Assembly (NCBI GenBank): GCA_027306785.1
Contig: DAHUZB010000025.1
Span: 3,783 to 67,782 of the forward strand
Direction: 5' to 3'
Source: Vulcanimicrobiota bacterium
GTDB taxonomy: Bacteria; Vulcanimicrobiota; Vulcanimicrobiia; Vulcanimicrobiales; Vulcanimicrobiaceae
DNA length: 64,000 nt
This document shows, one piece after another, positions 5,807-57,452 of the stretch (position 1 is its first letter; each line of letters begins with the position of its first letter). The translations under genes and the position numbers were made by a program. Below the pieces are notes generated by a model. That model worked only from the letters and a program-made list of their open reading frames with translations, was not told the origin of the DNA and did no database searches.

Positions 5807-5822
5807 TCCGGGCCAAAGATTC

Positions 5823-5851: not shown

Positions 5852-5855
5852 CGCT

Positions 5856-6269: not shown

Positions 6270-6272
6270 CGT

Positions 6273-7799
<1,527 letters not shown>

Positions 7800-37224: not shown

Positions 37225-37231
37225 ACGCGCA

Positions 37232-38134
37232 TTATCGTGCGGCGTGCAGCGCCGATTCGAGCTCTTCGAAGTAGGCCTCGTTCGCCAAACCGCGCGCGGC
37301 GCGCAATTCGCTATCGCTCAGCGCGCGATCGCCGGAGAGATCGCCGAGCGCGGCGCGATAGCGCTCGGCCCCGTGTCGCGCGCGCAGCACGTTGTGCAGC
37401 GCGCGCTGCACCGGATTGATGCCGGTCGCGAGGTAGGTGCGCCAGTGCGGATGGATCTTCGCCAACTGCACGGCGGTGCGCGCCTGCGCGCGCGCCTGCT
37501 TCACCATCTTTTCCACGTTGCCGCTGCGCGGGCGCGGCTTCCAGTGATAGACGAGGGCGTGTTTGTTGAAAACCGCCTTCACGCCGCCGAAACGCAGGCG
37601 CAGGCCGACATCGATATCTTCCCAGCCGTATTCGGAGAACGACTCGTTGAAGCCGCCGATCGCGCGGATCGTGGCGAGCGGCACCGAGACGTTGGTCGTC
37701 CAGAAATAGTTCGCGCTGTAGTCCTTGATGCTCCACACCGGCGGCGGAAGGTCGTCGAAGCTCTCGACGTTGATCGCGCCGCCGCGTACGATCGCCTTGG
37801 GGTGCGCATCGTGCGAGCGCAGGTGTTCTTCCACGAAGTTCGGCAGCGGCAGCACGTCGTCGTCGATGAAGATGATCCGCTCGCCCTGCGCGCGCGCGAT
37901 GCCCGCGTTACGACCCTTCGCAAGCCCGGAATTCTTCTGATCGATCACCTCGAAGCGGCACGTCGCGCGCAGCTGCGCGCGCGCGATCACTTCGGGCGTG
38001 TTGTCGGGCGACCCGTCGTTCACGAGCACGACTTCGTAGCTGTCGGCAGGCACGGTCTGCTCGAAACACGCATCGAGCACGCGCTCGAGGAGCGCGGCCC
38101 GATTGTAGGTGCAGAGCTGAATGGTGGCACGCAT
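37232..38134 (-). CDS. Family 2 glycosyltransferase
   Basis: QLCTYNR, VLVNDGSPD, GRNAGI and IDDD motifs. Confidence 0.85.
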   Translation of the reverse strand: MRATIQLCTYNRAALLERVLDACFEQTVPADSYEVVLVNDGSPDNTPEVIARAQLRATCRFEVIDQKNSGLAKGRNAGIARAQGERIIFIDDDVLPLPNFVEEHLRSHDAHPKAIVRGGAINVESFDDLPPPVWSIKDYSANYFWTTNVSVPLATIRAIGGFNESFSEYGWEDIDVGLRLRFGGVKAVFNKHALVYHWKPRPRSGNVEKMVKQARAQARTAVQLAKIHPHWRTYLATGINPVQRALHNVLRARHGAERYRAALGDLSGDRALSDSELRAARGLANEAYFEELESALHAAR

Positions 38135-38185
38135 CGCGGATCAGCCTTCTACGCGCTTACGCGGAGCCCCCGGCCCCGCGCGCCG

Positions 38186-39352
38186 CTACAGCGCTCGCGC
38201 CGCCGCGACGATGCGAGGAACGTCGAGGTGCGCGATGCAGGCGTAATCGCGACAGTTCTCCTTGGTATCGCCGGGGTGGCACGGGTAGCTCGGGCGCACG
38301 ATCGCGGTGCGTTCGCCCGCCGGTGCCCAGCGATCGGGAAAGTCGCTTCGGAACGGAAAGATGCCAACGGTCGGAGCGCCCACGGCGGCGGCGACGTGCA
38401 TCGATCCCGTGGTGATGCCGACGAAGAGCCGCGCCTGCGCGGCGAGCGCACCGAACGCGCCGATGCTCGTCGCCCCGGCAATGTCGTAGATCGCCCCCTT
38501 CGACAAGCTCAGGGTGACACACTCACCCCGCCCACCCCGCACGCCCGTGTCATCCGGCGCGCCCGCGTCATCCGGCGCGCCCATGTCATCCGGCGCGTCC
38601 ATGTCATCCGGCACGCCCGTGTCATCCGGCGCGCCCGTGTCATCCGGCGCGCCCGTGTCATCCTGAGCTTGTCGAAGGAGGGCGGCGTTGATGGGGGCGT
38701 CGGCGGGGGAGCCGCTGATCAGGACCGGCAGCGCGAAGGTGTCGCGGAGCGCGCGCGCGAGCGCGGCCCAGCCCTGCACGGGCCAGATACCGCGCTTGGG
38801 CGCCTCGGCGTTGGTGGGGTGCAGGATCACGTAACCGCCCTTCGCCAGGCCCAGCTCGGCGCGTAGCGCGTCGGCCTCGCGCTCATCCTGCGCGGTGGGG
38901 ACGAAGCGCGGGCGACGATCGGCGGTGTCGCAACCCAACGCACGCGCGTAGTCGAGTTGGATGTCGCCCCAATGCGACGCGGTATCGCCGCGCTCGCTGC
39001 GCACCGCCACCCGTTTGGTGAAGCGAAACGAGTACAGGCGGCGCGCCTGCCCCACACGCACCGGAATGCGCGCGAGCTGCGGCACCTTGGCCGTGCGCGC
39101 CGTCGCCCACGTCACCACGCAGGCATCGTAGCCGCGTTCGCGCAGCGTCGCGGCGAGCGCGCGTTCGTCGCCGCCGTCGTCAACGAGCACCGCATCGAGA
39201 TCGGGCACACGTTCGAGCGTGGCGCGATGGCCGGGCAGCGTAAGTGCGTCGACCGCGTCGTATTTCTCGCGCAACGCGCGCGCGACCACGCTCGAGACGA
39301 GCGAATCGCCGATGCCGCCGCCCGCGCAGTAGAGCAGCGCGCGACCGCTCAC
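38186..39352 (-). CDS. Family 9 glycosyltransferase carrying an in-frame repeat-derived insertion
   Basis: GT9 hallmarks (CAGGGIGDSLVSS.., ..GITTGSMHVAAAVGAPTVGIFP) are interrupted at about aa 223-286 by RQAQDD(TGAPDD)n..GECVTLSLSKG. Confidence 0.75.
   Translation of the reverse strand: MSGRALLYCAGGGIGDSLVSSVVARALREKYDAVDALTLPGHRATLERVPDLDAVLVDDGGDERALAATLRERGYDACVVTWATARTAKVPQLARIPVRVGQARRLYSFRFTKRVAVRSERGDTASHWGDIQLDYARALGCDTADRRPRFVPTAQDEREADALRAELGLAKGGYVILHPTNAEAPKRGIWPVQGWAALARALRDTFALPVLISGSPADAPINAALLRQAQDDTGAPDDTGAPDDTGVPDDMDAPDDMGAPDDAGAPDDTGVRGGRGECVTLSLSKGAIYDIAGATSIGAFGALAAQARLFVGITTGSMHVAAAVGAPTVGIFPFRSDFPDRWAPAGERTAIVRPSYPCHPGDTKENCRDYACIAHLDVPRIVAAARAL
38496..38682. repeat. 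Inverted pair of the dispersed repeat motif (copies C and D) enclosing a tandem array, inside the GT9 coding sequence
   Basis: CCCTTCGACAAGCTCAGGGTGACAC (38496-38520) and GTGTCATCCTGAGCTTGTCGAAGGAGG (38655-38682) are reverse complements at 24 of 25 positions. Confidence 0.7.
38549..38656. repeat. Tandem repeat, 6 copies of 18 bp (GTCATCCGGCGCGCCCGT consensus)
   Basis: The units start at 38549, 38567, 38585, 38603, 38621 and 38639, with 0-3 substitutions each. They encode DDTGAP-type hexapeptides in the GT9 frame. Confidence 0.9.
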
Positions 39353-40224
39353 GCCTCGTCGAGCGCGCGCACGAGCTCGCGCGTGTACATGCCGTCGAGA
39401 AACTGCGAGCGCGCGAACGCGCGCAACGCCGCGGGTGTATCATCGCTCGTCGCGAGTCCCGCGTAAAGCGCGAGCAGCGAATCGGGCAGCAGATACTTGC
39501 CGCGCAGCAGATTCAACCGATGGGCGCCCGTCGCCATGCGCGCGCGCGGCGAGGGCTGCTTGTCGAGAAAGCGCCGCGCCATGCGTGCTTTCTCCATCGC
39601 CTTGCGCGTCTCGACTTCGAGCGTGTTCTCGGTCGGCGGCTTGATGTGCCAGATATAGGCGTCCCACGCGAACTTCCAGCGCATGCCCGCTTCACGCAGG
39701 CGCACGCCGAGTTCGGTATCTTCCCAGCCGTACAAGCGAAACTCTTCGTCGAATCCGCCGACCGCGTCGAGTGCGTGCTTGGGCACCGACACGTTGCACG
39801 TGCAGAGAAACGCGCGCGAATAGTTGGCCGGAATCGGCTTCGGGCGGTCCTCGTAACCGCGCACGTTGAGGATCGGTCCGTTCACCACCAGATTGGTGGT
39901 GGAGTGCGCCGCTTCGTGCGCCGCGAGGAATCCCGGCGGCATCTGCACGTCGTCGTCGACGAAGAGCACGAGAAAGCCGCTCGCTTCGCGGATGCCCGCG
40001 TTGCGTGCCTTGCCGCGGTTGGGTTCGGGCTCGTAGACGTACGTCACGGGAAAGAGCCCGCGCGCGCTTGCGCGCTCGGCGACGCCCTTGGTGTCGTCGG
40101 TCGAGCCGTTGTCGACCACGATCGCTTCAAAGGACGGCGCGCCGATCTGATGCTCGAGCGAGGCGAGCGCCCGTTCGAGATAGTTCGCCCGGTCCTTGGT
40201 AGCGATGACGATCGAGATACGCAT
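39349..40224 (-). CDS. Family 2 glycosyltransferase
   Basis: ISIVIATKDR, VVDNGSTDDT, ARNAGI and FVDDDV motifs. Confidence 0.85.
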   Translation of the reverse strand: MRISIVIATKDRANYLERALASLEHQIGAPSFEAIVVDNGSTDDTKGVAERASARGLFPVTYVYEPEPNRGKARNAGIREASGFLVLFVDDDVQMPPGFLAAHEAAHSTTNLVVNGPILNVRGYEDRPKPIPANYSRAFLCTCNVSVPKHALDAVGGFDEEFRLYGWEDTELGVRLREAGMRWKFAWDAYIWHIKPPTENTLEVETRKAMEKARMARRFLDKQPSPRARMATGAHRLNLLRGKYLLPDSLLALYAGLATSDDTPAALRAFARSQFLDGMYTRELVRALDEA

Positions 40225-43533: not shown

Positions 43534-43998
43534 TTATTGAATCCAGAAGAGATCTTCGCCCTGTGAAACCAGCTCGCCGTTCTCGGGAATGATGCGCAGG
43601 ATCGTGCCCGCGTAGTCGCTCTGGATCTCGTTGAAGAGCTTCATCGCCTCGAGGATGCAGAGCACCTGACCCGACTCCACGCGATCGCCGACCTTCACGA
43701 ACGCCTCGGCGTCGGGCGAGGGCGAGCGGTAGAACACGCCGGTGAGCGGCGCGGCGACGCGCTTGGCATTGGGGGGCGGTCCGGCCGCGGTATCGGCGGC
43801 GGGCACGGCGGCAGCGGGCGCTCCGGCGGTAGCGGGCATCGCCCCGACTGCCATCGGCGCGACGACCTGCATGCCGGCCTCGCGGCGCACCAATTCGTAG
43901 ATTGCGTCGCCGACCTTCACCTTGATGCGGTCGAGATCGTGCTCGTGCATGATCTCGAGCAGCGAAGCGATCGTGTCGGTCTCGTGTTCGTGTGCCAT
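43534..43998 (-). CDS. accB: Biotin carboxyl carrier protein (AccB-like)
   Basis: Biotinyl-lysine motif CILEAMKLFNEI, with the Ala/Pro linker upstream. Confidence 0.85.
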   Translation of the reverse strand: MAHEHETDTIASLLEIMHEHDLDRIKVKVGDAIYELVRREAGMQVVAPMAVGAMPATAGAPAAAVPAADTAAGPPPNAKRVAAPLTGVFYRSPSPDAEAFVKVGDRVESGQVLCILEAMKLFNEIQSDYAGTILRIIPENGELVSQGEDLFWIQ

Positions 43999-45273
43999 CT
44001 AGCCCTGCTCTTCGCCGAGAGCGGCCGCAAGGTCTCCCGCACGGCCGAGCGGGATGCGGCGATCGGTGCGGGCTTCGAGATCGCGCAGCACCACCTCGCC
44101 CGCGGCGAGCTCGTCGCTGCCGAGGATGAGAGCGTAGCGCGCGTTATTGCGGTCGGCGGCTTTGAGATGCGCGAGCAGCTTGCGATCCTCGTAATCCATG
44201 AAGACCGGCTGCGCGAGGATGCGACGGAGCTCGGTCGCAAGCGGCACGAGCACGCCGCGCGCCTGGGCGCCGAGTGCGATCGCCTGCACGCCCGCGCGGG
44301 GCGCGACCGCATCGCCGTGCAGCGCGTCGAGCATCATCAAAAAGCGTTCGATGCCGAGCGCGAAGCCGACCGCGGGCGTGGCGGGGCCGCCGAGCGAGCT
44401 CACGAGCCCGTCGTAGCGGCCGCCCCCGCAGACCGTGGATTGCGCGCCGAGCGCGCCCGAGATGATCTCGAAGACGGTGCGGGTGTAATAGTCGAGTCCG
44501 CGCACGATCTTCGGGTTCACCACGTACGGAATGTTCGCCGCATCGAGGTAGGCACGCAGCGCGCCGAAGTGCGCGCGGCAGCCGTCGCAGAGAATCGATT
44601 CGAAGGTCGGCGCCGTTTCGACGAAGGGGCGATCGCGATCGTCTTTGCTATCGAGAATGCGCAGCGGATTGCGCTCCAAGCGGCGCTGCGAATCGGGCGA
44701 GAGCGCGTCGAGGTGCGGACGGAAATGCGCGAGCAGCGATTCGCGATAGCGCGGGCGGCACTCGTCGTCGCCGATGGTGTTGATGTTGAGCACCGCGTCG
44801 TCGATGCCGTGCGAGCGCACCAGCTCCCACGCAAGCGAGATCACCTCGAAATCGGCCTCGGGACCGACGAATCCGGTGCACTCCACGCCGAACTGATGTG
44901 CTTGGCGATAGCGTCCCTTCTGCGGGCGCTCGTAGCGGAAGATCGGGCCGACGTAGTACCAGCGTTGCGGACCCTGCGCGAAGAGCTTGTGCTCGAGCGC
45001 GGCGCGCATCACCGGCGCGGTGAATTCGGGACGCAGCGTGATGCTGCGCTCGCCCTTGTCGAGAAATGTGTACATCTCTTTCTCGACGATGTCGGTGGTT
45101 TCGCCGACGCCGCGCACGAAAAGCTCGGTCGATTCGAAGATCGGCGTGCGAATCTCGCCGTAGCCGAAGCGACGGGCGAGATCGTGAATGCGGCGTTCGA
45201 GCGCGAGCCAGCGCGCCGAGATCGGCGGCAGAATATCTTGAGTGCCGCGCGGTGCGGTGATGTGTGACGACAT
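43999..45273 (-). CDS. hisS: Histidyl-tRNA synthetase
   Basis: APRGTQDILP, RGLDYYT and GGGRYD motifs. The start is set at MSSHITAPRGT (ATG complement 45271-45273). Confidence 0.93.
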   Translation of the reverse strand: MSSHITAPRGTQDILPPISARWLALERRIHDLARRFGYGEIRTPIFESTELFVRGVGETTDIVEKEMYTFLDKGERSITLRPEFTAPVMRAALEHKLFAQGPQRWYYVGPIFRYERPQKGRYRQAHQFGVECTGFVGPEADFEVISLAWELVRSHGIDDAVLNINTIGDDECRPRYRESLLAHFRPHLDALSPDSQRRLERNPLRILDSKDDRDRPFVETAPTFESILCDGCRAHFGALRAYLDAANIPYVVNPKIVRGLDYYTRTVFEIISGALGAQSTVCGGGRYDGLVSSLGGPATPAVGFALGIERFLMMLDALHGDAVAPRAGVQAIALGAQARGVLVPLATELRRILAQPVFMDYEDRKLLAHLKAADRNNARYALILGSDELAAGEVVLRDLEARTDRRIPLGRAGDLAAALGEEQG

Positions 45274-45313
45274 GGGCTTCTCCCGGGTTCGCACGGCGCG
45301 GCGCTAATCCTAG

Positions 45314-46468
45314 ATGCGCGCGCGGTGCGCGGGATGGAATGGTATGCGACCTACGATCTACGTCGCCGCCGTGCTCGCCCTTTTCGCCTTTGCGCCGGAA
45401 ACCGCACGCCTGGTGCTGGTCGCCGCCGCGGGCATCCTGATCGAGAGCCTGCCGTACCTGGCCGCCGCGGCGGCGCTGCGCCCGCGGCTCGGCCGCCATG
45501 CGCCCGCGCTGCTGGCCTACGCCGGATGCGGCTGCACGCCGGGACCGAGCGCCCGCAGCCTCCCCGCCGCCCTCGCCTGCACGCTGCTCTTCGGCCCGTG
45601 GGTCGCGCTCGGCCGCGTGGCCCTCGGCACCCTTGCCGCCCGCCTGCCGAGCCCGCATGCCTGCGAGCATGAGCACGCCGACGATCTCGCCGCCGAGCTG
45701 CTGGGGCTCGCCCCCGCGGCGCTGCTGGCGGCCGGGGTGCTCGCGGCCGCGCCGCTGCTCGACTTGGGGCACCGCCCGGCGGCGCTTGCGATCCTGGCCG
45801 GCGCGGCGCTCGGCCTCGGCGCGGGCCCCTGCGCGCTCGGCACGGTCGCGCTCGCGGCCACGCTGCGCACGCAATCGCCGCTCGCCGCCTTCGCCGCGCT
45901 CGCCTGCGGGGGCATGGTCGATCTGCGCCGCTTCGCGCCTCGACTGCCGCGAGCGCCCGGCGGCGGCCTCGCCTATGCGCTGTTGGCCTGCGTCTGCGGA
46001 CTGGTCGCGCTACGGCACGGGGGCGGCATCGTGCATCCGCGTCTCGTGCTGCCGCTCGGCGCGTGCGCCGTGCTCTGCGTCGCGGCGGCGCTGCGCGCGC
46101 GGCGCGCGGAGCGCCCGCACGCCGCCATCGTCGCCGCGGCGCTGCTCGCAGCGGTGGTCGTAGGCGCGCCATTGCCGGTCTATCGGGCAAGCGAAACCAC
46201 GCTCGCCGACGCCTTCGCGGGCGAGCATCTGCGCTTTACCGGTGTCTATCACGCGCAGCCGCATGCCGCGCTCGTGCGCTTCGCGATCACCTGCTGTCGC
46301 GCCGATGCGCATCCGGTCGCGGCGCTGCTGGCATCGCCGGTGCACGCGCGCGATCGCACCTGGCTGCGCGTACGCGGCGTGCTCGCACGACGGGGCGACG
46401 CGCTCGTGCTGGTGCCCTCGCACGTGCAGGCGATCGCGCCGCCGAGCGATCCATTCGTCTACGAGTGA
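45314..46468 (+). CDS. Membrane permease-like protein with a C-terminal DUF1980/TIGR03943-like CC-x-AD domain
   Basis: Multiple TM segments, a CGC motif, and the C-terminal FAITCCRADAHPV, which resembles the YcgQ/TIGR03943 signature. The start could be ATG 45344. Confidence 0.5.
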   Translation: MRARCAGWNGMRPTIYVAAVLALFAFAPETARLVLVAAAGILIESLPYLAAAAALRPRLGRHAPALLAYAGCGCTPGPSARSLPAALACTLLFGPWVALGRVALGTLAARLPSPHACEHEHADDLAAELLGLAPAALLAAGVLAAAPLLDLGHRPAALAILAGAALGLGAGPCALGTVALAATLRTQSPLAAFAALACGGMVDLRRFAPRLPRAPGGGLAYALLACVCGLVALRHGGGIVHPRLVLPLGACAVLCVAAALRARRAERPHAAIVAAALLAAVVVGAPLPVYRASETTLADAFAGEHLRFTGVYHAQPHAALVRFAITCCRADAHPVAALLASPVHARDRTWLRVRGVLARRGDALVLVPSHVQAIAPPSDPFVYE

Positions 46469-46481
46469 GCGCTACGTGCCG
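46454..46481. repeat. 28-bp direct repeat, left copy (TTCGTCTACGAGTGAGCGCTACGTGCCG)
   Basis: Identical at 28 of 28 positions to 48123-48150. It spans the last four codons and stop of the 45314-46468 gene and a minus-strand GT-stop. Confidence 0.9.
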
Positions 46482-46554
46482 GGCAACCGGTAGCCGCCCA
46501 AGCCGTTGATGATGCCGCGCAGGCGGACGGCAAGACTCGTATTGCGGCCGAAGC
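46482..46554 (-). pseudogene. Decayed 3' fragment homologous to the DUF5916 outer-membrane gene
   Basis: It encodes ..TRSFGRNTSLAVRLRGIINGLGGYRLPGT*, compared with ..TRTFGRNTSLAVGLRGINGMGGYGLPGT.. at 48289-48358. Identity is roughly 85-90 percent by eye, with one 3-nt indel. It lacks the 138 nt that follow in the intact gene. Confidence 0.65.
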
Positions 46555-47074
46555 TTCTAGTATATTTTTGCGAAATCCGGCGAGAGATCAGCCAAAATCG
46601 CATTGCCCATGGTGCGTATCGGCCGCAACGGGCGCCCTGCGGTAACCGCATCTTCGGGCGACAGCGTCGTCCACATCGATGCACGTTTAACATCTTGAGA
46701 CCGCAACGGTCGCGACGGCATCACAACACGAGGACAATTGCTACAATTGTGATCGAAAACGTCAGTTAAAGCGTTTTCGCTCAGTCGACTTTTTCACGGG
46801 CCTGCTAGGTCAGGCTAGCCGCATTGGTACCGGCGATGTCTCTTCGTGTCAGGCACTCCGCAGGATTCCACAGAATAATAATGGTAGCGACGCCGCGGGT
46901 GGTCGGGCACGATGCGATGTTATCTTCATAACGTGGAACCGTCGTTTCTCTATGTTCGCTCGCGATGTGGCGCAATTCCGCTGGCACCGCTGGCGCCGTC
47001 AGAAACAGTTTCCGTCTCCGCATTACCCTGAGCCCATCTGGCATTTTCAACTTTCTTGAAGGTGAGATTTTTGA

Positions 47075-47314
47075 ATGGACTTTGAAAAGGCTCTGGTTCA
47101 ACGCAGCAATCGGCGTGCGTTTCTCTCAGCACTCGGCGTAGTCTCCCTTGCAGGCTGCGCCGGAAACGCAACCATGTTATTACCGTCACATCTCAAGAGA
47201 GATATTATTCCGATCCAGCCGGTCATCGGCGGCGGCACTGGGACTGGCGGAACAGGTTCAAACTTGCCGTCCAACTTAGCGACGCTGTCGAACGCGGAGA
47301 TCGCCCCGCTCTGA
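47075..47314 (+). CDS. N-terminal part of a split gene: Tat-like signal, lipobox, Gly/Thr linker, first LxxAxIxx repeat
   Basis: MDFEKALVQRSNRRAFLSALGVVSLAGC.. with AAGGTGA 8-9 nt upstream. The ORF stops at a TGA (47312-47314) in the middle of a repeat motif. Confidence 0.5.
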   Translation: MDFEKALVQRSNRRAFLSALGVVSLAGCAGNATMLLPSHLKRDIIPIQPVIGGGTGTGGTGSNLPSNLATLSNAEIAPL

Positions 47315-47472
47315 CTCGGGCGCAGATCGCGGCCCTAAGTAACGCACAGATCGGATCTCTAGCAGACACCCAGCTCGGTTACGTTACGGCGGCGTCTGCG
47401 TTCCATGGCTCTCAAGCGTCGGCTTTTTTCAAGCGTACCGTCGAGAGCCAATCGGTAGCCCCTCCATTCAAG

Positions 47473-47847
47473 GTGCCGCCTGGAGCTTCCGGGGGCAATA
47501 TCTCCCCGTATGGCTATCAGCCGCCAATGCAGGGCAGTGATTGGTGGGAAGTCGTCGGCTCCACCATCCTGGGCGCGGTCGGCTCTACGGTCGGCTCGGC
47601 ATTCGGCGGAACGGTTGGGGCATATCTCGGCGGCGCTGCCGGCGGACTCCTCGGAACATTTTTGTTTTCGGGCCAAGATGCCCAATTCTGGTTCTTCGAT
47701 TCAAACGTCGGATACTATGACTTCATTGACCTTGGAAATTGGCAGACGGTTCAGAACGTCGTGGGCTGGGACAGTGACGGTTATACCATTGGCGGTTCCT
47801 TCGACCCTAATTCGAACACCGTCACCGTTACAGTAATTGCCAATTAA
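47473..47847 (+). CDS. C-terminal part of the split gene: glycine-zipper membrane segment plus C-terminal domain
   Basis: The track ORF starts at GTG 47473 without a Shine-Dalgarno sequence. However, the frame is open back to 47086 with no ATG, GTG or TTG. From 47311 that frame encodes LTRAQIAALSNAQIGSLADTQL, which continues the repeat of the upstream ORF. Confidence 0.5.
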   Translation: MPPGASGGNISPYGYQPPMQGSDWWEVVGSTILGAVGSTVGSAFGGTVGAYLGGAAGGLLGTFLFSGQDAQFWFFDSNVGYYDFIDLGNWQTVQNVVGWDSDGYTIGGSFDPNSNTVTVTVIAN

Positions 47848-47872
47848 CGACAAGCTCTGAAGGGGTGAAAGC

Positions 47873-48052
47873 GTGCGGAAACGGCAACTCATCGAGGCTG
47901 CAGCATTACTTGGGGCGCCATGGATAGTCGCTCTCGCGCTGTGGTTGGCGTTTAGAAGCGCACCGATGGCAATTGGCACATTTTGCGGTGTGGGTATCTA
48001 TGCCGCCGTGCGCCTCGTCATGCTGTCCAGGCATGCTCATAATGGATCCTGA
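47873..48052 (+). CDS. Small two-TM membrane protein (59 aa, below the ORF-track cutoff)
   Basis: My translation from the GTG at 47873 is VRKRQLIEAAALLGAPWIVALALWLAFRSAPMAIGTFCGVGIYAAVRLVMLSRHAHNGS*. GAAGGGG lies 8-9 nt upstream. It is 25 nt downstream of the glycine-zipper gene. Confidence 0.4.
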   Translation: MRKRQLIEAAALLGAPWIVALALWLAFRSAPMAIGTFCGVGIYAAVRLVMLSRHAHNGS

Positions 48053-48088
48053 ACGAGAACCCTGTATTACCGATATTATCGTTCATTC

Positions 48089-48125
48089 GTGAGGCCCGGG
48101 ATTATATCTCGGGTCTCACTTTTTC
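48089..48125 (+). terminator. Rho-independent terminator closing the islet transcription unit
   Basis: GTGAGGCCCG-(11-nt loop)-CGGGTCTCAC (one G-U pair) followed by TTTTT. Confidence 0.55.
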
Positions 48126-48150
48126 GTCTACGAGTGAGCGCTACGTGCCG
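48123..48150. repeat. 28-bp direct repeat, right copy
   Basis: Identical to 46454-46481. It overlaps the stop codon of the DUF5916 gene. Confidence 0.9.
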
Positions 48151-50279
48151 CTCTCGCCGCCCGCGTGAAAGACGAACTTCACGATGAAGCGGTTGAGCGT
48201 CGCCGCCGCCGCGGGCGTGCCGTATTCCACGTAGAGCTCATCGAGGTTCACGAAGCGTTCGTGGAACGAGAGCGCAAGATTCGTACCGGGCAGCCCGTAG
48301 CCGCCCATCCCGTTGATGCCGCGCAGGCCGACCGCGAGACTCGTATTGCGGCCGAAGGTGCGCGTGAGGGAGAGACTGCGGTACCACTGCGAATCGAGCG
48401 GCGGCGCAAGCGCGTTCATCGCGTGCTCGATGTTGCCGTTGAACGCGACGGAGATACCGTAGCGGCCGAAACTGCGCGTCGCCGAGATACCGGGCTGCTG
48501 CAAATAGACCGGCTGCCCCGCGCCGTTAGCGAACGGCCCCCAATTGTAGGTTGCGTCGATCGGCGAGGGCGTGCCGTCACGATAGCCGAGCGCCAGCGAT
48601 TGCGCGTTGAACGGCAGAACGACCGCCCCTTGATAGAAGGGATACGCGGCCGTGTAGACACGCAATTCGCTCGTCGAGACCCCGTACGTGAACGAGAGCT
48701 GATCGTCGAACGTGCTCGTGAGATTCGCAAACACGTCGGACTGATGTGCAGCGCCCGATCGATCGACGAAACGATCCGCTCCCGCGAGCACCTGATACGA
48801 TTTTACGCCGTGCCGTCCGCTACCGCTGTACTGCACGTAGATCTGCGGGCCGCGCACGTCGTTCTCGGTAATGTACGCATCGACCGGCGCGTACTCGGGC
48901 CCGATGTCTTGGTATTTCGCGAGCGCGAGCCAATGCGAGGTCTGCACTCCCGAGCCGATTTGAAAGTCACCGCCCTGCGCGGGATCGCTCACGAGCGTGC
49001 CGCGTTCGAATTGATACTTCGTGAGCGCGAAGAAGCCGCTGTGCGGATTGGTCGTCGCGATCGCGCCGCCGAGCATACGATCGCTAAGGCCGGTATGCTG
49101 CGCGTCCACGCCCTGAAAGGCGTACGTGAACGCGTTGTCCGGCGTGTTTACCTGGTAACCGAACGCGCTGTCGTTGAATCCCGGTCCGCCTGCGTTGAGC
49201 GCACCGATCTGCGCGTGCCCCTGCGTGCCCTCGAATTTGAAGCCGCGGTCGAAAATGCCGATGTTCGGCGAATAAAAAGGGATATCGGCCGAGTTGATAT
49301 TCACGCCGGGCAACGAGTTGAGGTACTGCGCACCCTGCGAGAAGAACGGGCGGTACTCGTTATACTGCCGCTGGAACTCCTGCGGAGCGATCGTCGTCTG
49401 ATCTTGCTCGACGTTCGAGAAATCGGGATTGAGGGTACCCACGAACGAAAGCGTGTTGGTCACCGGCACGGTCACATCGACGCCGAGTGTACGCTGTTTG
49501 GTTTGTACGAACTGTCCCACGCCGTCTTGAAAGAGTCCCCGATCGGTTCCCGCGGCGCCGAGCGTGTAGATGTCGGCTCGCGCCTTCGGGCGCGCGGCAT
49601 GCTGCGAGAGGCGTAGGCCGGTGAGTTCCGGCCAAAACTGCGAAGAACCGATGTCATTCATCGTGGGCTCGTAAGCCCACGTATACTCCTCGCTCTTCGC
49701 CGCGATGAGGCGCGCCACGTTTACCTGCCACGAAACCACGCCGCCGTTCGAGCGAATGTCCTTGAGCGGGATGATCATCATCGCGTTCCAGTCGCCGTTC
49801 GGAAGCACCGTCGCCACGCTCTTCCAACTCGGCGCATAGCGCGCGTTCTCGCTCGAGTACTCGTCGTGGATGCCGTGCGGATTCACGCGAAACTGGTAGA
49901 CGCGCGAGCCCGATCCCGATGTCTCGAAATTGAGGGCCACGTGATCGTCGCTTCCGATGCCGGCGTGATCGACCGTCTGCGCCGCCGTGATCGGAATGCC
50001 GCGCTGCTCGCAATGGACCGCGAAGTACAGGTTCTTATCGTCGTACAAGAGGTACGCCACGGTCGCGTGACGCGCGGCGCGGTGATCGGTGAAGTCGTAG
50101 AAATGCGCGAACGTCGTCGCGCTCTTCCACTGCGGCGCGGTGAGCGAGGCGTCGAACGGTGGCGGTGCCGATGCCTTCACCGCGGGGACGGAGGCCGAAC
50201 GCGGCACCCATGCGCGCGCGGGCGCCGCAGTGAGTGCCGCAATCACGGCCAGGAATATGCATAGCGGTACGCGAGCCAT
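48141..50279 (-). CDS. DUF5916 / CBM9-like outer-membrane protein
   Basis: Signal peptide, an N-terminal carbohydrate-binding-like domain (YLLYDDKNLYFAV), the motif LNPDFSNVEQDQ, and a long beta-rich C-terminus. Confidence 0.75.
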   Translation of the reverse strand: MARVPLCIFLAVIAALTAAPARAWVPRSASVPAVKASAPPPFDASLTAPQWKSATTFAHFYDFTDHRAARHATVAYLLYDDKNLYFAVHCEQRGIPITAAQTVDHAGIGSDDHVALNFETSGSGSRVYQFRVNPHGIHDEYSSENARYAPSWKSVATVLPNGDWNAMMIIPLKDIRSNGGVVSWQVNVARLIAAKSEEYTWAYEPTMNDIGSSQFWPELTGLRLSQHAARPKARADIYTLGAAGTDRGLFQDGVGQFVQTKQRTLGVDVTVPVTNTLSFVGTLNPDFSNVEQDQTTIAPQEFQRQYNEYRPFFSQGAQYLNSLPGVNINSADIPFYSPNIGIFDRGFKFEGTQGHAQIGALNAGGPGFNDSAFGYQVNTPDNAFTYAFQGVDAQHTGLSDRMLGGAIATTNPHSGFFALTKYQFERGTLVSDPAQGGDFQIGSGVQTSHWLALAKYQDIGPEYAPVDAYITENDVRGPQIYVQYSGSGRHGVKSYQVLAGADRFVDRSGAAHQSDVFANLTSTFDDQLSFTYGVSTSELRVYTAAYPFYQGAVVLPFNAQSLALGYRDGTPSPIDATYNWGPFANGAGQPVYLQQPGISATRSFGRYGISVAFNGNIEHAMNALAPPLDSQWYRSLSLTRTFGRNTSLAVGLRGINGMGGYGLPGTNLALSFHERFVNLDELYVEYGTPAAAATLNRFIVKFVFHAGGESGT

Positions 50280-50321
50280 CGTCGCGTGTACGGCGATGCG
50301 GGCGACGATGTTTCGTGCGCG

Positions 50322-50723
50322 CTACGAGAGGCTGTCGCGCTTGCGGTGCTCCAGCACCTCGACGGGGATGCCGTTCGGATCTTCGATGAAGGCGATCGCG
50401 CGCGTCCCGCCGGGCGACTTGTAGACGTCTTTGAGGATCTTCACGCCCTTGCTCTTCAGATCGGCGATGTACGGTTCGAGATCGCCGTCCGCTTCGATCG
50501 CGAGATGCTCGTAGCGATTCCCGAGCGCATACGGTGGATGCTCCTCCAGATCGTACACGAGTTCGATGTACGCGTTCCAATCATGCCCGACGAACGCCAT
50601 GTCGGCATTCCCGGGATAGTGATATGGCCCATCGAGCAGTTTCAGCCCGAGCTTCTTGGTATAGAACTCGATCGACTCGTCCATGTTATTGACGAAGATC
50701 GACGTATGTAAAAAGCGTGGCAT
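50322..50723 (-). CDS. VOC-family protein (glyoxalase I-like)
   Basis: The start is set at MPRFLHTSIFVNNMDESIEFYTKKLGL (ATG complement 50721-50723). It has a typical paired beta-alpha-beta-beta-beta pattern and ..GIPVEVLE. Confidence 0.8.
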   Translation of the reverse strand: MPRFLHTSIFVNNMDESIEFYTKKLGLKLLDGPYHYPGNADMAFVGHDWNAYIELVYDLEEHPPYALGNRYEHLAIEADGDLEPYIADLKSKGVKILKDVYKSPGGTRAIAFIEDPNGIPVEVLEHRKRDSLS

Positions 50724-50873
50724 CCGAGTTTCCTTTCCCGCAGAGCATGTGCTTCGACAACGGTTATAGACCAAGCCCACCCCTAGACGGATGCACGCGA
50801 CCGAACAGATGTCTTCTCGTTCCGCCCCGGCATCAGACACGAATGCGCGCTTGGGCTTTATGGATGGGTCTTC

Positions 50874-51263
50874 TTGCGACAATCGATGCTTCTCACATGG
50901 TTTCAAACGAGCATCCTCGGGAGGACGCTAGCCCGCCTTGCGGCACTCGGGAGCGGGGCCGTGGCAGCGTTTTCGCTCAACCTCACGGCGAGCGATGTCT
51001 ACGCCCACACGTGGTCATCGAGAGACCGATGGCTCGTCGCGCTGATCGCGGCTTTGCTCGTCGTCAACCTCGTCGGCACGGAGGTGCTCCGTCGGCTCTC
51101 CGATGACCTCGATGACATGCGGCGTCGAGAAGCATTCCTCGCCATCGCAGCCGAACACGCAAAGTATCTGCAGGATGCCGGGCGGCAGGGCCGGACGCAG
51201 GTCGTCGAAGACGGGTTAAAAGTGCTAGACAAGCTCTACCGGCGCGCCAAGAGAAAGAAGTAG
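50874..51263 (+). CDS. Hypothetical two-TM protein with a charged helical C-terminal domain
   Basis: 129 aa. The hydrophobic segments are ILGRTLARLAALGSGAVAAFSL and WLVALIAALLVVNLVG, followed by ..DDLDDMRRREAFLAIAAEHAKYLQD..KRKK. I do not recognise a family. Confidence 0.4.
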   Translation: MRQSMLLTWFQTSILGRTLARLAALGSGAVAAFSLNLTASDVYAHTWSSRDRWLVALIAALLVVNLVGTEVLRRLSDDLDDMRRREAFLAIAAEHAKYLQDAGRQGRTQVVEDGLKVLDKLYRRAKRKK

Positions 51264-51271
51264 GTCGAGCG

Positions 51272-51568
51272 ATGAAATTCCAACTTGCGAAAACCGCCGC
51301 GGAAGCGATCGAGCAGATGCCCGACGACGCGGCCGACAGCCTCCGATTCGTGCTCGAGCAGATTCGCGATGCGAAAAGCATGAGCGAGCTTCATATCGCG
51401 CGTCCGCTGCGCGCGGGAGCGTACGCCGAACCCTCGATCTACGAAATTCGCAGAGGGCACACACGGACTATTCTGAGCCTTGCCACCGACCGTGGTGAGC
51501 CGAACGTTACGATCCTGAGCGTCGAGCCGGGGCAGGCGCGCACGAGCGGACTCTCGTTCGGGCGGTAG
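51272..51568 (+). CDS. RelE/ParE-superfamily-like small protein
   Basis: 98 aa. The pattern MKFQL.K.A.EAIEQMP......L...LEQI....., then ..IYEIRRGHTRTILSL....EPNVTILSVE, matches the usual RelE/ParE layout. It lies 8 nt after the upstream ORF. Confidence 0.4.
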   Translation: MKFQLAKTAAEAIEQMPDDAADSLRFVLEQIRDAKSMSELHIARPLRAGAYAEPSIYEIRRGHTRTILSLATDRGEPNVTILSVEPGQARTSGLSFGR

Positions 51569-51585
51569 CGCCGGCGTTGCGACCG

Positions 51586-53160
51586 CTAGTGCAAGAAGTA
51601 GCGATACGACGAGAAGACGAGGGCGACGCCGAGACGGTCGGCGGCCGCGATCACATCCTCGTCGCGGATCGATCCGCCGGGGGCGATGATCGCGCTGCAG
51701 CCGCTTTCGACGGCGGCCTCCAGGCCGTCGCTGAACGGGAAGAAGCCGTCGCTCGCGCAGGCGGCACCCTTGGCGGCTTCACCCGCGCGATGCGCGGCGA
51801 TCTTCACGGCGCTCACGCGGTTGGTCTGACCCGCACAGATGCCGCGCGTGGTGCCGCCGCTCACGATCACGATGCCGTTCGACTTCACGTGGCGCACCAC
51901 GTCCCACGCGAAGGCGAGATCGTGCCATTCCTGCGCGGTCGGCTGTCGCTTGGAGACCACGCGCCACTCTTCCGCGGGCGCCTCGGGATTGTCGTCTTCG
52001 GCGAGCACGCCGCCGAGGGCGCTACGCACGCGCAGTTCGCGCGCGAGCACGTCGGGCAAGTCGGGCGTGAAGCGCATGATGCGCAGATTCTTCTTCGTTT
52101 TCAAGAGTGCGAGCGCATCGTCGTCGAACTCGGGTGCCGCCACGATCTCCAAGAAGAACTTCTTCAGGCTCTGCGCCGCTTCGAGATCGATGCGCGCGTC
52201 GGTCGCCACGATGCCGCCGTAGGCGGAGACGGGATCGGCTTCGAGCGCGTCGTGGACCGCTTTGCCGACGGTCGAACGCTGCGCCACGCCGCACGGCACG
52301 GTATGCTTCACCGCCGCGGCGCGCACGAAACGCTCGTGCTCGCTGCCGAACGCGGCGCCGAGCGGCGCGCGCGAGAGCAGACGCAGCGTGGCATCGAGAT
52401 CGAGCAGATTGTTGTATGAGAGCGCTTTGCCGTGCAGTTGTTCGGGCAGACGCTCCGGTCGATCGAGATAGAAGGCCGCGCGATTCTGCGGATTGGTGCC
52501 GTAGCGCAGACGCTGCGAGAGCGGCGCGGTGAGCGCGAGCGCACCCGGTAGTTCGCTCGGCAGATACTGGCCGGCGGAGCCCAGATAGTGCGCGATCGCC
52601 ACATCGTACTCGGCGGTGCGTTCGAACGCGGCGACAGCGTAGCCGCGGCGCAGCGCGAACGGCACCTCGCCCGCGCGGAACGCGGCGATGAATTCGTCGT
52701 ACTGCGACGGATGCGTGAGGATCGCCACGTGCGCGAAGTTTTTCGCCGCGGCGCGCAGCAGCGAGACACCGCCGATATCGATCTGCTCGATCGCTTCGGG
52801 CAGGGTGGTGCCTTCGCGCGCGACCGTCGCCTCGAACGGGTAGAGATTCACCACCACCGTGGTGATCGGCGCGATCGCGTATTTCGCGGCTTGCGCGCGA
52901 TGATCGGCGTTGTCGCGATCGTAGAGAATGGCGCCGAAGACCTTCGGGTGCAGCGTCTTCACGCGGCCGTCGAAGAGCTCGGGAAAGCCGGTCATCTCGC
53001 CCACGTCGTGCGCCGGAATGCCGTGCTCTTCCAAATGGCGTTTGGTGCCGCCGGTCGCGTAGATCACCGTGCCGGTCTCGTGCAGGGCGCGCGCGAGCTC
53101 GACCGATCCGGTTTTGTCGGAGAGCGAAAAAAGCGCGGCGGGTTTAGCGGTGTCAGGCAA
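51586..53160 (-). CDS. purH: Bifunctional AICAR transformylase / IMP cyclohydrolase
   Basis: 524 aa. The sequence is conserved PurH throughout (ALFSLSDKTG.., ..GGIRD..). Confidence 0.95.
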   Translation of the reverse strand: MPDTAKPAALFSLSDKTGSVELARALHETGTVIYATGGTKRHLEEHGIPAHDVGEMTGFPELFDGRVKTLHPKVFGAILYDRDNADHRAQAAKYAIAPITTVVVNLYPFEATVAREGTTLPEAIEQIDIGGVSLLRAAAKNFAHVAILTHPSQYDEFIAAFRAGEVPFALRRGYAVAAFERTAEYDVAIAHYLGSAGQYLPSELPGALALTAPLSQRLRYGTNPQNRAAFYLDRPERLPEQLHGKALSYNNLLDLDATLRLLSRAPLGAAFGSEHERFVRAAAVKHTVPCGVAQRSTVGKAVHDALEADPVSAYGGIVATDARIDLEAAQSLKKFFLEIVAAPEFDDDALALLKTKKNLRIMRFTPDLPDVLARELRVRSALGGVLAEDDNPEAPAEEWRVVSKRQPTAQEWHDLAFAWDVVRHVKSNGIVIVSGGTTRGICAGQTNRVSAVKIAAHRAGEAAKGAACASDGFFPFSDGLEAAVESGCSAIIAPGGSIRDEDVIAAADRLGVALVFSSYRYFLH

Positions 53161-56100
53161 GGGCGAGCTCCGGTTCTTGGGAGTGCGTGAGCGTCGCGGC
53201 GATCACGGTGCTCACACCCGGCTCTTTCATCGTGACGCCGTACATGCGATCGGCGAGCTCCATCGTCTTCTTGTTGTGGGTGACGATGATCATCTGCGCG
53301 TCGGTCGCGAGATCGCGCACCATGCTCGAGAAGCGATCCACGTTCGCATCGTCGAGCGCGGCGTCGACTTCGTCGAGCAGATAGAACGGCGACGGCTTCA
53401 CTTGAATGAGCGCGAAGATGAGCGCCGCGGCCGTCATCGCGCGCTCGCCGCCCGAGAGCGTGGTGAGCGGCATCAGCTTTTTGCCCGGCGGCTGCACCGA
53501 GATCTCCACGCCCGTTTCGGAGAGATTCTCGGGATTGGTCTGCCACATCTTGGCCGACCCGCCCGGGAAGAGCTTGGCGTACATCTCGGTGAACGCGGTC
53601 GAGACTTTCTCGAACGTCTCGTTGAACTGCGCTTGCGACTGCGCCTCGATCTCCTTGATCGATTCGAGCAGCGTCTCGCGCGCCTTGGCGAGATCTTCCA
53701 ACTGCGTGCGCAGGAAGGTCTCGCGCTCGCCGAGCTCTTCGCGTTCGGCTTCGGCGTTGAGGTTGACGTTGGCGGAGAGGCGCGCGAGCTCTTCGCGCAG
53801 GCGCGGCAGTTCTTCCATCACCGCGTCGCCTTCGTCTTTGTAGCGCTCCTCGACGTCGGTGCATTCTTCGTCGGTCGCGGGATTCTGCGCGAACTGCGAG
53901 ACGAGCATGCCGAGTTCGGCTTCGATCTCGGCGAGGCGCGTGCGGTGACGTTCGCCGCCCGCCATCGCTTCGCGCTCTTCGTTTTCGGCGGTGCGTAGAT
54001 CGCCTTCGAGTTTGAGCAACTGATCGGCGGAGGCTTCGCGTTCGCGCCGCGCGACTTCCAAACGCGCGTCGAGATCGCGCACGCCTTCACGCAGGCCTTC
54101 CACGTGCGCATGCGCGGTGCGCGTCTGTTCCATCAGCGCGCCGATCTCGGCGAGCATCGTCTCGCGCGCGGTGCGCGCACGCTCGCTGTTCGCATCGAGC
54201 ATGCCCAAGCGGCCTTTCGCCGCATCGCGTTCCGCGGTGATCGCGGCGACGCGCTCGCGCAGCTCGGCGGCGTGGCGACTCGCCTCGGTCTGTGCCTGCT
54301 CGGCCTGTGCGATCTCCGCGCGCGCGCGGGCGAGCTCGGCTTCGAGGCGTTGGCGCTCCTCATCGCTCTGCACGGCCTCGATCTCGGGCGCTTCGTACGA
54401 ACGCTCGCGTTCGCGCGCGCCGCGGCCGCGTTCGAGAAGCTCTTCCAAGCGCGTCTGCGCGGCGTGCACGTCGTGATTCATGCGTTCGAGATCGCTCGCG
54501 AGCCCGACCATCTCGGTACGCAGCTCCGCGATCTGCAGTTCCACGCGTCCGAGCGCGTCGCGCGCGCTCTCGCGCGCGGCCGTCGCGGCCTCGGCGCGGG
54601 CGCTCGCGTCGTGCGCGGCGCGTTCGAGCGATTCGAGCTTGGCGCGCATCTCCGCAAGCGTCTCGCGCAGTGTCTGCGCCTGCACGCGACGGGAGAGAAT
54701 CGATTTTTCGCGCCGGAAACGACCGCCCGTGATCGCACCGCCGCCCGCGATCTGCTCGCCCGAGAGCGTCACGACCGTATCGCGGAATCCGCGTCCGCGC
54801 ACCAGATGGATGCCGGTCTGCAGCGTGTCGACGATCAGCACGTTGCCGACCAAGAAGCGCACCACCCCTTCGTACTGCGGCGACGTACGCACGAGCGCGT
54901 GCGCGTAGCCGATCACGCCCGGTGTGCGTTCGAGATCGGGCGTCATCTGCTTGGCGTCGCGATGCGCGAGCGTGTCGAGCGGCAGGAAGGTGGCGCGGCC
55001 CTGCTCGCTGCGGTTCAAATAGTCGATCGCGCGCTCGGCGTCTTCCGAGGTGCGCGTGATGATGTTGGAAAGGCGCGCGCCGAACGCCACGTCCAGCGCG
55101 CGTGCGTAGCGTTCGTCGGTCGTGATGAGGTTGGAGACGATGCCTTCGATGCCGCGCAGTTCGCCGCGCTGCATCGCCTCGATCACGGCGCGCGTGCCGG
55201 GCACGTGACCTTCGAGCGAGTTCTCCAGCTCTTCGATCGTGTGCAGGCGCGACTCGGCGGCCTTGACCTCGCCGGTCTGCTCGCGATGCGCCGCGAGGGC
55301 GCTTGCGAGATCGCTCTGCGCCTGCGTCACCGCGACTTCCGCGTCTTCCACCGCGCCGCGCGCGGCGAGCGCCTGACCGTCGAGCGCGGCGAGCTGCGCC
55401 TCGCGCTCGGTGTAGCGCTGCGTGGCGCCGCCCATCGTCATTTCCAACTGTGCGACGAGCTCGCGCGCGGCGTGCGCTTCGCCTTCCAGGCGCTCGGCTT
55501 CGGCGCGCAGGTTCTCGCCCTGCACGCGTCGTTCGGCCTTCTTCGCCGCGAATTCGGCGGCGGTCGCTTCGACTTCGCGCAGGCGCGTGAAGATGGCGTC
55601 CAACTGCGCGCGCGTCTGCGAGAGCGATTGCTGCGCGCCGAGTTCGCGTTCGCGCGCGCCTTCCACTTCGCTTGCGAGCGGCGCGAGGCGCTCTTCCAAA
55701 TCGGCGATCGTGGCCGCGAGCGATTCGCGCTCGGCCTGCACGCGCGCCACGTCTTCGGAGGTTTGCGTGGACTGCGCTTCGAGCGCTTCGCGTCGCGCGA
55801 GCGCGGCGGCATAATCGGCTTCCACGCGGGCGAGCTCGGCGCGGCGCGTCTGCGCCTGCGCGCGAATCTCGTCGAGCGCGAGCTCTTGCTGATAGGCGCG
55901 CGTGCGCAGTTCGGCGAGGTTGGCGCCGTATTGCGCGGCCTTGGCGGCGGCGGCGGCACGCACTTCGTCTTGGCGTTCGAGCTCGAGACGGAGTTGCTCG
56001 CGTTCGACGCGGCGCGACCGGCTCGCGCGCATGTACGAAAGGATCTCCAGGTCGCGCACGCGCGCGCTCACCTTGCGGTAGCGTTTGGCGCGGCGCACCT

Positions 56101-56722
56101 GCGTTTCGAGTTCGGGAATGCGGCGCTCGAGTTCGGCGATCAGATCGTTGACGCGGATCGCGTTTTGCTCGGTCTGCTCGAGACGGCGCATCGACTCGTG
56201 CTTGCGCGCAAGAAACTTATTGATGCCCGCGGTCTCTTCGAAGAGCGCGCGGCGTTCGGTGGGCTTGCTCGTGAGAATCGAGTCGATCTGCCCCTGCGAG
56301 ACGATCGAGTACGATCCGGGACCGAGCCCGGTGCCCATCAACAGCTCGACGATGTCGCGCAGACGCACCTGATTGCGGTTGATGAAGTACTCGCTCTCGC
56401 CCGCGCGGTAGGCGCGGCGCGTGATCTCCACCTCGCTGTACTCGGTCGCCATCTTGCCGTCGCTGTTGTCGAAGGTCATCGAGACCTCGGCGAGGCCGAG
56501 CGGCTTGCGCTTTTCATTGCCCGCGAAGATCACGTCTTCGAGCTTGCCGGAACGCAGGCTCTTGCTCGACGTCTCGCCGAGCACCCAACGGAAGGCATCG
56601 ACCATATTCGACTTGCCGGAACCGTTCGGTCCGACGATCGCGGTGATACCGCCCGAGAAATCGAGCGTGGTGGGTTCGGCAAAGGTTTTGAACCCGAAGG
56701 ACTTGATCTTCTTTAACTTCAT
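53153..56722 (-). CDS. smc: Chromosome partition protein SMC
   Basis: It starts at MKLKKIKSFGFKTF (ATGA overlap with the rnc stop). It has Walker A GPNGSGKSN, long coiled coils, LSGGE and YLLDEVDAALD. Confidence 0.93.
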   Translation of the reverse strand: MKLKKIKSFGFKTFAEPTTLDFSGGITAIVGPNGSGKSNMVDAFRWVLGETSSKSLRSGKLEDVIFAGNEKRKPLGLAEVSMTFDNSDGKMATEYSEVEITRRAYRAGESEYFINRNQVRLRDIVELLMGTGLGPGSYSIVSQGQIDSILTSKPTERRALFEETAGINKFLARKHESMRRLEQTEQNAIRVNDLIAELERRIPELETQVRRAKRYRKVSARVRDLEILSYMRASRSRRVEREQLRLELERQDEVRAAAAAKAAQYGANLAELRTRAYQQELALDEIRAQAQTRRAELARVEADYAAALARREALEAQSTQTSEDVARVQAERESLAATIADLEERLAPLASEVEGARERELGAQQSLSQTRAQLDAIFTRLREVEATAAEFAAKKAERRVQGENLRAEAERLEGEAHAARELVAQLEMTMGGATQRYTEREAQLAALDGQALAARGAVEDAEVAVTQAQSDLASALAAHREQTGEVKAAESRLHTIEELENSLEGHVPGTRAVIEAMQRGELRGIEGIVSNLITTDERYARALDVAFGARLSNIITRTSEDAERAIDYLNRSEQGRATFLPLDTLAHRDAKQMTPDLERTPGVIGYAHALVRTSPQYEGVVRFLVGNVLIVDTLQTGIHLVRGRGFRDTVVTLSGEQIAGGGAITGGRFRREKSILSRRVQAQTLRETLAEMRAKLESLERAAHDASARAEAATAARESARDALGRVELQIAELRTEMVGLASDLERMNHDVHAAQTRLEELLERGRGARERERSYEAPEIEAVQSDEERQRLEAELARARAEIAQAEQAQTEASRHAAELRERVAAITAERDAAKGRLGMLDANSERARTARETMLAEIGALMEQTRTAHAHVEGLREGVRDLDARLEVARREREASADQLLKLEGDLRTAENEEREAMAGGERHRTRLAEIEAELGMLVSQFAQNPATDEECTDVEERYKDEGDAVMEELPRLREELARLSANVNLNAEAEREELGERETFLRTQLEDLAKARETLLESIKEIEAQSQAQFNETFEKVSTAFTEMYAKLFPGGSAKMWQTNPENLSETGVEISVQPPGKKLMPLTTLSGGERAMTAAALIFALIQVKPSPFYLLDEVDAALDDANVDRFSSMVRDLATDAQMIIVTHNKKTMELADRMYGVTMKEPGVSTVIAATLTHSQEPELALA

Positions 56723-57441: not shown

Positions 57442-57452
57442 GCGAGACGGGC

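Follow-up and report, generated by a model that had tools for sequence, protein, structure and literature searches.

We analysed a 64,000-nucleotide stretch of DNA from a Vulcanimicrobiota bacterium (contig DAHUZB010000025.1), hereafter the window, and within it an islet of about 1.6 kb that lies between two perfect 28-nt direct repeats at the junction of two convergent genes. The plus-strand gene on the left carries a DUF1980_C domain (32 bits, over the Pfam cut-off) and also matches the putative permease subunit family TIGR03943, under the cut-off. The minus-strand gene on the right carries a DUF5916 domain (25.6 bits, over the Pfam cut-off), and its homologues mark the organism, an uncultured soil bacterium, as Eremiobacterota/Baltobacteraceae-like. 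Between the two genes lie a displaced piece of the DUF5916 gene, a non-coding segment and a two-gene cassette with its own terminator, as follows (positions are those of the window).

45314-46468, plus strand: left flanking gene with DUF1980_C, intact, tail FVYE and stop; the gene caller places an alternative start at 45344
46454-46481, no strand: left 28-nt direct repeat, made of the DUF1980 tail, 3 nt and the final 10 nt of DUF5916
46479-46553, minus strand: displaced copy of DUF5916 codons, ending in FGRNTSLAVRLRGIINGLGGYRLPGT and stop; 65 of 72 positions identical to 48286-48357, with 3 nt more and without 138 nt
46554-47074, no strand: left non-coding part of the insert, guanine-plus-cytosine (GC) content 0.536, no Rfam or protein-family match
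47075-47311, plus strand: N-terminal part of the cargo gene in frame 2, with a twin-arginine translocation (Tat)-like/lipobox signal RRAFLSALGVVSLAGC and the first ALTTAQ-type repeat
47308-47847, plus strand: C-terminal part of the cargo gene in frame 1, with ALTTAQ repeats, a glycine-zipper segment and a beta-rich C-terminal domain that ends in TVTVTVIAN
47873-48052, plus strand: two-helix membrane protein of 59 amino acids (aa), the conserved partner of the cargo gene
48089-48124, plus strand: intrinsic terminator that closes the cassette, with a perfect 14-bp stem, a loop of 3 nt and a T run, abutting the right repeat
48123-48150, no strand: right 28-nt direct repeat, in which 15 nt of DUF1980 tail, a copy without function, come first and the 10 nt of the working DUF5916 end come last
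48141-50279, minus strand: right flanking gene with DUF5916, intact, 712 aa, tail GESGT and stop
48151-48357, minus strand: intact form of the remainder of the duplicated segment, composed of segment B (48151-48288, 138 nt, absent on the left) and segment C (48286-48357, kept on the left)

The 28-mer, TTCGTCTACGAGTGAGCGCTACGTGCCG, is found in exactly two copies in the window, also when up to three mismatches are allowed, and these are identical at 28 of 28 positions. It did not occur in 100 dinucleotide-preserving shuffles, and no other perfect repeat is as long among the window's repeats up to 15 kb apart. The left copy contains the last four codons and the stop of the DUF1980 gene, the right copy contains the GT-stop end of the DUF5916 gene, and a portion of the 28-mer is coding in each of the two. 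A preliminary description of this DNA had reported both the repeats and the gene ends that they contain, and the repeat search and the ends of the open reading frames (ORFs) bear this out. Both flanking ORFs are full length, with ends matching those of the closest relative (FVYE and GT, each followed by stop), as for an insertion at gene 3′ ends with the frame restored.

This relative is the metagenome-assembled genome (MAG) REEB354, the closest available, in which a single contig (JAGWSR010000031.1, which provides both loci L002 and L007) encodes the nearest homologue of the DUF5916 protein (75% amino-acid identity) and an orthologue of the DUF1980 protein (65% identity). Its gene order, purH-glyoxalase-DUF5916-DUF1980-hisS, is that of the window, and a gap of 3 nt separates the two convergent genes, in line with the few bases that had been predicted for the window without the islet. 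The L007 junction, TTCGTGTACGAGTGAACGCTACGTGCCG, is present as a single copy with two differences from the 28-mer. In blastn alignments, the L007 blocks stop at window positions 48123 and 46482, and L007 9123-9151 aligns with both copies of the repeat. By this comparison of junctions and gene order we showed that L007 is a true ancestral empty site, with the single 28-mer-like junction that the preliminary description had suggested looking for in relatives, and that the islet is a derived insertion. Among the relatives' loci L002-L015, a DUF1980 gene stands beside DUF5916 only in L002/L007; it is absent there in eight other distinct relatives, and the more distant ones have other genes downstream of DUF5916. 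A degenerate pattern of the junction, run against metagenome contigs, gave two matches, both on unrelated contigs of 50% GC that have no similarity to the window and hence due to chance. We also observed that identity to L007 is uneven across 43844-58049, with 88% in the SMC-purH block and 78-81% in the DUF5916 and DUF1980-hisS blocks.

The insert between the repeats (46482-48122) is compositionally foreign and was horizontally acquired. Its GC content is 0.554 versus 0.657 for the window, the GC content at third codon positions of its ORFs is 0.57-0.62 versus 0.80-0.87 in the flanking genes, and in tetranucleotide distance the islet ranks first among 313 sliding 1.6-kb segments. The lower GC content had been noticed at first reading, and the islet is compositionally the most deviant 1.6 kb of the window.

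The host sequence that was duplicated around this insert is longer than the 28-mer. Immediately inside the left repeat, the displaced fragment is 90% identical to segment C, contains one 3-nt insertion, and has lost the 138 nt of segment B between CGTGCCG and CGTACCG; in the intact gene, these 138 nt precede the stop codon. A copy of about 73 nt, 85-90% identical and skipping 138 nt, had been described by eye, and the alignment agrees with it and adds the 3-nt insertion. The duplication spans at least 235 nt (48123-48357), namely 15 nt of the DUF1980 end, 3 nt, and 217 nt of the DUF5916 end. The 28-mer is one end of this longer duplication and not a distinct core. Indeed, it shows 0 mismatches in 28 positions against 7 in 72 for the adjoining fragment (Fisher one-sided p ~0.09, hand calculation) and is thus not preserved significantly better, which leaves no statistical ground to call it a core.

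The origin of the fragment can be traced within segment C. There, the fragment and the resident gene are 90% identical, whereas the resident gene shares 76% (55/72) with its L007 orthologue, and the fragment is closer to the resident gene than to any other relative examined. When three other lineages are aligned with it, the fragment alone carries the 3-nt insertion and at least four of the substitutions, and none of the differences is clearly private to the working DUF5916 gene. These identities, together with the changes private to the fragment, show it to be a decaying copy of the host lineage's own DUF5916 gene, made after the split from L007. A derivation from a foreign DUF5916 gene was considered and rejected: no DNA similarity extends past 46553, and the 72 nt clearly stem from the resident gene and have decayed since. 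Upstream, the peptide WLISRRISQKYTRS is similar to the DUF5916 family consensus WLRRISLTRS, at a score that 34 of 1875 decoys reach; as it has no DNA-level backing beyond 46553, the longer fragment that this peptide would suggest is left unproven. We also noted that the lengths of the fragment's two indels (-138 and +3) are each divisible by three, and that a minus-strand ORF of 73 aa (46472-46693) runs from islet DNA into the displaced DUF5916 tail and shares its frame up to the end (FGRNTSLAVRLRGIINGLGGYRLPGT and stop); this may be a chance ORF or a fusion ORF.

The remainder of the islet is occupied by its cargo. A promoter-like site (46720-46747) and an AGGTGA Shine-Dalgarno sequence stand upstream of position 47075. 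The frame 2 ORF covers 47075-47314, the open stretch of frame 1 begins at about 47086 and ends at 47847, and the gene caller annotates 47527-47847 as a 106-aa gene. Full-length homologues align with the window in two frames, first over 47075-47311 and then over 47308-47844, which indicates a frameshift in the cargo gene (~256 aa) near 47308-47312; on inspection, an additional CT seems to be its cause. Since its first gene is frameshifted, the cassette is probably no longer fully functional. In all the contexts examined (L025, L028, L022, L021 and L016), the family gene is immediately followed by an equivalent two-helix ORF. The terminator hairpin (48089-48119) has a predicted energy of -24.4 kcal/mol (z = -7.2), and its T run extends into the repeat. 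As read from these signals, the cargo is a conserved two-gene module that forms a transcription unit of its own, from the promoter-like site and the Shine-Dalgarno sequence to the terminator. The preliminary description had recognised a glycine-zipper cassette with its own terminator adjoining the right repeat: the terminator is as described, and the cassette can be redefined as a frameshifted gene of ~256 aa with a conserved 59-aa partner.

An exhaustive HMMER search identified ~20 representatives of the cargo family among 1.84 billion proteins, mostly of 250-270 aa; a word-indexed protein search made with the repaired cargo protein had found no match. The repaired window protein matches the ALTTAQ repeat (PF20080) with 21.1 bits (E 2.6e-4) against a gathering cut-off of 26.4, the match spanning the frameshift, and 11 of 13 family members match PF20080 at E ≤0.1, the best at E 3.8e-7. 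The glycine-zipper families PF05433 and PF13488 remain under their gathering scores (19.3 bits versus 24.2, and 15.6 versus 25). The alignment of the family shows a GxxxG-rich segment, and the beta-rich C-terminal domain is conserved across it. The AlphaFold model of the C-terminal half of the cargo protein (predicted local distance difference test score 47) is too poor for a fold search. PADLOC and NCBIfam gave no match on the cargo, two scans of viral contigs, one made with the cargo protein and one with its nearest homologue, retrieved no relatives, and blastn of the islet against plasmids gave no match. By analogy with CdzC/CdzD/CdzI of Caulobacter, which are glycine-zipper membrane toxins with a small immunity partner (PMC5380434), it is reasonable to guess at a membrane-active protein that is paired with a small protective one. 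As with the Cdz toxins, a surface- or envelope-directed glycine-zipper protein would be encoded beside a small membrane protein on mobile DNA. The cargo differs from them in sharing no sequence homology, in its Tat/lipobox signal, ALTTAQ repeats and beta-rich C-terminal domain, and in having no secretion genes.

Homologues of the cassette in other genomes inform on how such cargo travels. The nearest homologue (P0122/P0142, 55% identity) is encoded on the complete 15.7-kb contig L025, whose GC content is 0.546 compared with 0.554 for the islet. The cassette lies there within a 9.8-kb tRNA-Pro(GGG) island with the following features, in coordinates of L025.

148-225: tRNA-Pro(GGG)
181-227 and 10009-10055: 47-nt perfect direct repeat of the tRNA 3′ end
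602-1774: tyrosine integrase
8633 to ~9620: cassette, adjoining attR, in the same orientation as in the window
10192-10214: third tRNA relic of 23 nt, 137 nt past attR

This island also carries a resolvase and IS3, and it shares its geometry with the window: target gene, repeat, other genes, same-strand cassette, repeat. Two other family members are found in comparable surroundings, P0134 between IS3 copies and near a RES toxin gene, and P0123 in a 5-kb insert between ftsQ and ftsA. With homologues in an integrase island, between IS3 copies and in an ftsQ/ftsA insert, the cassette is thus a recurrent cargo of mobile or inserted DNA.

Some further observations on these contigs are worth recording. 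L025 has a 24-nt perfect repeat, TTGGCAGCAATTTGGCAGCATATA, near both ends of the island (292-315 and 9867-9890), which may be an integrase arm site. In L028, a 238-kb contig, the segment 9244-14344 holds the cassette, several small genes and an MCP gene between ftsQ (POTRA_1) and ftsA, and this insert breaks up a cell-division cluster that is usually contiguous. The glyoxalase gene adjacent to the L028 cassette was compared with that of the window as possible kin and is unrelated. In L016, an IS3-family insertion (5048-6515) is located ~1.5 kb upstream of the cassette homologue and is absent from L019, which is otherwise 99.9% identical.

We favour, with moderate confidence, the view that the islet is the decayed remnant of an integrated island, in whose integration an integrase would have taken part. 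Firmly shown is that foreign DNA entered the 3-nt gap region between the convergent genes after the split from the closest sampled relative, and that its insertion duplicated the at least 235 bp of host junction delimited above. Both genes stayed intact, DUF1980 using the left copy and DUF5916 the right one. What was redundant on the left then lost 138 nt, gained 3 nt and gathered its private substitutions, leaving the 28-mer and the 72-nt fragment. How the junctions arose is inferred: the islet would be the stump of a larger integrative island like that of L025, with its tRNA-Pro attL, tyrosine integrase, other genes, cassette and attR. This island would have integrated by a crossover within a junction-like attP, and the integrase and most of the other genes would later have been deleted. 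One could speculate that the integrase went with a single deletion that began at the inner edge of the left copy and reached into the element, which would also explain the abrupt end of the homology at 46553.

Three considerations lead us to favour a decayed island. First, relatives of the cargo ride such islands, at the same position. Second, the reading frames of both target genes are exactly preserved. Third, crossover blocks of a few hundred bp and integrase-less remnants with partial targets are known: for genomic islands, crossover blocks <300 bp are within the accepted range (PMC9580842), and among the tycheposon islands of Prochlorococcus there are degenerate remnants, devoid of an integrase, with partial copies of the target at their flanks (10.1101/2020.12.28.424599).

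Compared with tyrosine-integrase islands, of the kind mapped by Islander/TIGER and represented here by L025, the islet has the same direct repeats around foreign DNA with one copy at the empty site, target genes kept intact through duplicated 3′ ends, a cassette adjoining one of the putative att sites, and its closest cargo homologue on such an island. It is unlike them in having no trace of an integrase, in its length of only 1.6 kb, in its location at a protein-gene junction and not at a tRNA gene, and in the 138-nt deletion of its inner repeat copy. With the tycheposon remnants it shares the state of an integrase-less stump bounded by a partial target copy, and the third tRNA relic of L025 itself resembles the partial targets of these remnants. 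Phylum, target and cargo are all different, and the tie of the islet to its element family is drawn from the cargo alone.

Several results weigh against the derivation from an integrase island. Pfam, NCBIfam and PADLOC profiles detected no recombinase on the ORFs of the islet. The integrase, resolvase and IS3 of L025 have no tblastn match in the whole 64-kb window, and tblastx of the left 590 nt of the insert (46482-47074) gave nothing above noise that could be an integrase remnant. These searches agree with the preliminary description, which had seen no integrase or transposase. Moreover, outside the two cassette genes, the islet has no DNA similarity to the L025 island. The targets differ, being a protein-gene junction in the window and tRNA-Pro in L025. 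What was duplicated comes from the host lineage, for which recombination by the host is an equally good explanation, and only one relative with conserved synteny was compared. The attL and attR of a decayed element that had been proposed at the outset are therefore retained in part. The islet is a derived insertion, foreign and decayed (frameshift, 138-nt deletion), and has a cargo homologue on an integrase island; the 28-mer as att core and the junctions as products of a recombinase stay hypothetical, the duplication being at least 235 bp of host sequence.

The most serious alternative, which we regard as possible but clearly less probable, is a capture without any recombinase encoded by the element. 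In one form, a circular or linear foreign fragment carrying a copy of the host junction would have entered by a RecA-type single crossover, as a Campbell-type insertion-duplication. In another, two sister chromosomes broken ~235 bp apart would have been joined with a foreign piece as filler, the cassette being the captured DNA. Campbell-type insertion-duplication is a single-crossover homologous recombination, as with integrating suicide plasmids. The islet resembles its products, since a host-derived duplication of a few hundred bp directly flanks the insert (48123-48357, with the left copy at 46454-46553) and both copies are of the host lineage. The length and host origin of this duplication argue for such a capture, and so does the fact that it spans a gene adjacency known only in this clade among the relatives examined. 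So do the lack of a recombinase or remnant of one in the islet and the window and the conservation of the 28-mer, which is not significantly better than that of the rest of the duplication. By contrast with Campbell-type events, the islet has no known vector, replicon or circular intermediate. A capture would moreover need an unexplained step by which the foreign DNA first gained the host junction. Nor does it readily account for the repeated occurrence of the cassette family in the surroundings of mobile elements, among them an integrase island in which the cassette has the same relative position, or for the precise preservation of both host genes, which is typical of att-type integration. 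The preliminary description had named a duplication-mediated capture as its own alternative, and the data fit it equally well: integration of an island and capture by host recombination would lead to the same product.

A bolder version of this would see in the islet a working unit, that is, a minimal recombinase-free mobile cassette that uses a host-derived junction as homology arm and is moved between close genomes by host recombination. Its glycine-zipper toxin/immunity-like cargo pair would be spreading among Eremiobacterota and be swapped between integrase islands and arm-bearing cassettes. We consider this very unlikely.

It is also improbable, slightly more so, that the islet is ancestral to the clade and was lost from L007. 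Recombination between the direct repeats would leave exactly the empty site that we see there, and L007 is the single syntenic outgroup. However, divergence is 10% between the left and right copies of segment C and 24% between the orthologues, so that the duplication postdates the split, barring gene conversion, and the composition of the insert is foreign and unameliorated.

An assembly artefact, by which a chimeric metagenome join would have formed at a short shared sequence, deserves mention because the window is from a MAG and assemblers can be misled by repeats. It is highly improbable. An independent Logan contig (L001, SRR10333326, 8,260 bp) covers 45134-53393 with both junctions and the flanks, and it differs from the window at two positions, 52300 and 52303, both outside the islet. 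In addition, a simple mis-join would not yield a diverged and internally deleted gene fragment at the left junction. Exact-protein look-ups of both flanking genes returned this same Logan contig alone, with the site occupied, and thus no population variants.

Target-site duplications typical of bacterial transposons are far shorter than 28 to at least 235 bp. A transposon, a miniature inverted-repeat transposable element or an integron gene cassette, with the repeat as target-site duplication or attC-related sequence, might be suggested by a small islet without its own recombinase between direct repeats, and can nevertheless be practically dismissed: the duplication is too long, terminal inverted repeats do not exceed the shuffle level (best end-to-end match 7-8.5 versus a shuffle mean of 7-7.6 and maximum of 11), the only structured element of the islet is a simple terminator hairpin that is unique in the window and not attC-like, and no part of the islet has another copy in the window. 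An Rfam scan of 46300-48300 gave no match.

Elsewhere in the window, we made some observations of other kinds. A second small islet (50724-51576, 853 nt) lies between the glyoxalase gene and purH, where the spacer of L007 is 64 nt. It contains two plus-strand ORFs (50961-51263 and 51272-51568), is lower in GC in part, and was examined for the same repeat architecture, with no flanking direct repeats found. A minus-strand ORF of low GC content (29142-29822, ~0.55), flanked by genes for a GNAT-like protein and an MFS transporter, encodes 226 aa with membrane segments and two CxxC pairs and may be an acquired gene. Seven 18-nt units stand in tandem at 38515-38686, with a consensus of about CATCCGGCGCGCCCGTGT. 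Finally, 35678-39966 contains three similar segments spaced ~1.9-2.1 kb apart (60-84% identity over 32-73 nt), which suggests three tandem paralogous genes.

Altogether, the islet is an ordinary worn-down genomic islet that represents no new kind of element and no new mechanism, and it opens no long-standing question. It is a clean, small example of accessory genes entering and then eroding in the uncultured phylum Eremiobacterota, in which mobile elements are scarcely described. Its study also defined a rare, uncharacterised and island-travelling two-gene envelope cassette, composed of an ALTTAQ-repeat glycine-zipper lipoprotein and a small membrane partner, which is a candidate toxin/immunity or surface module.

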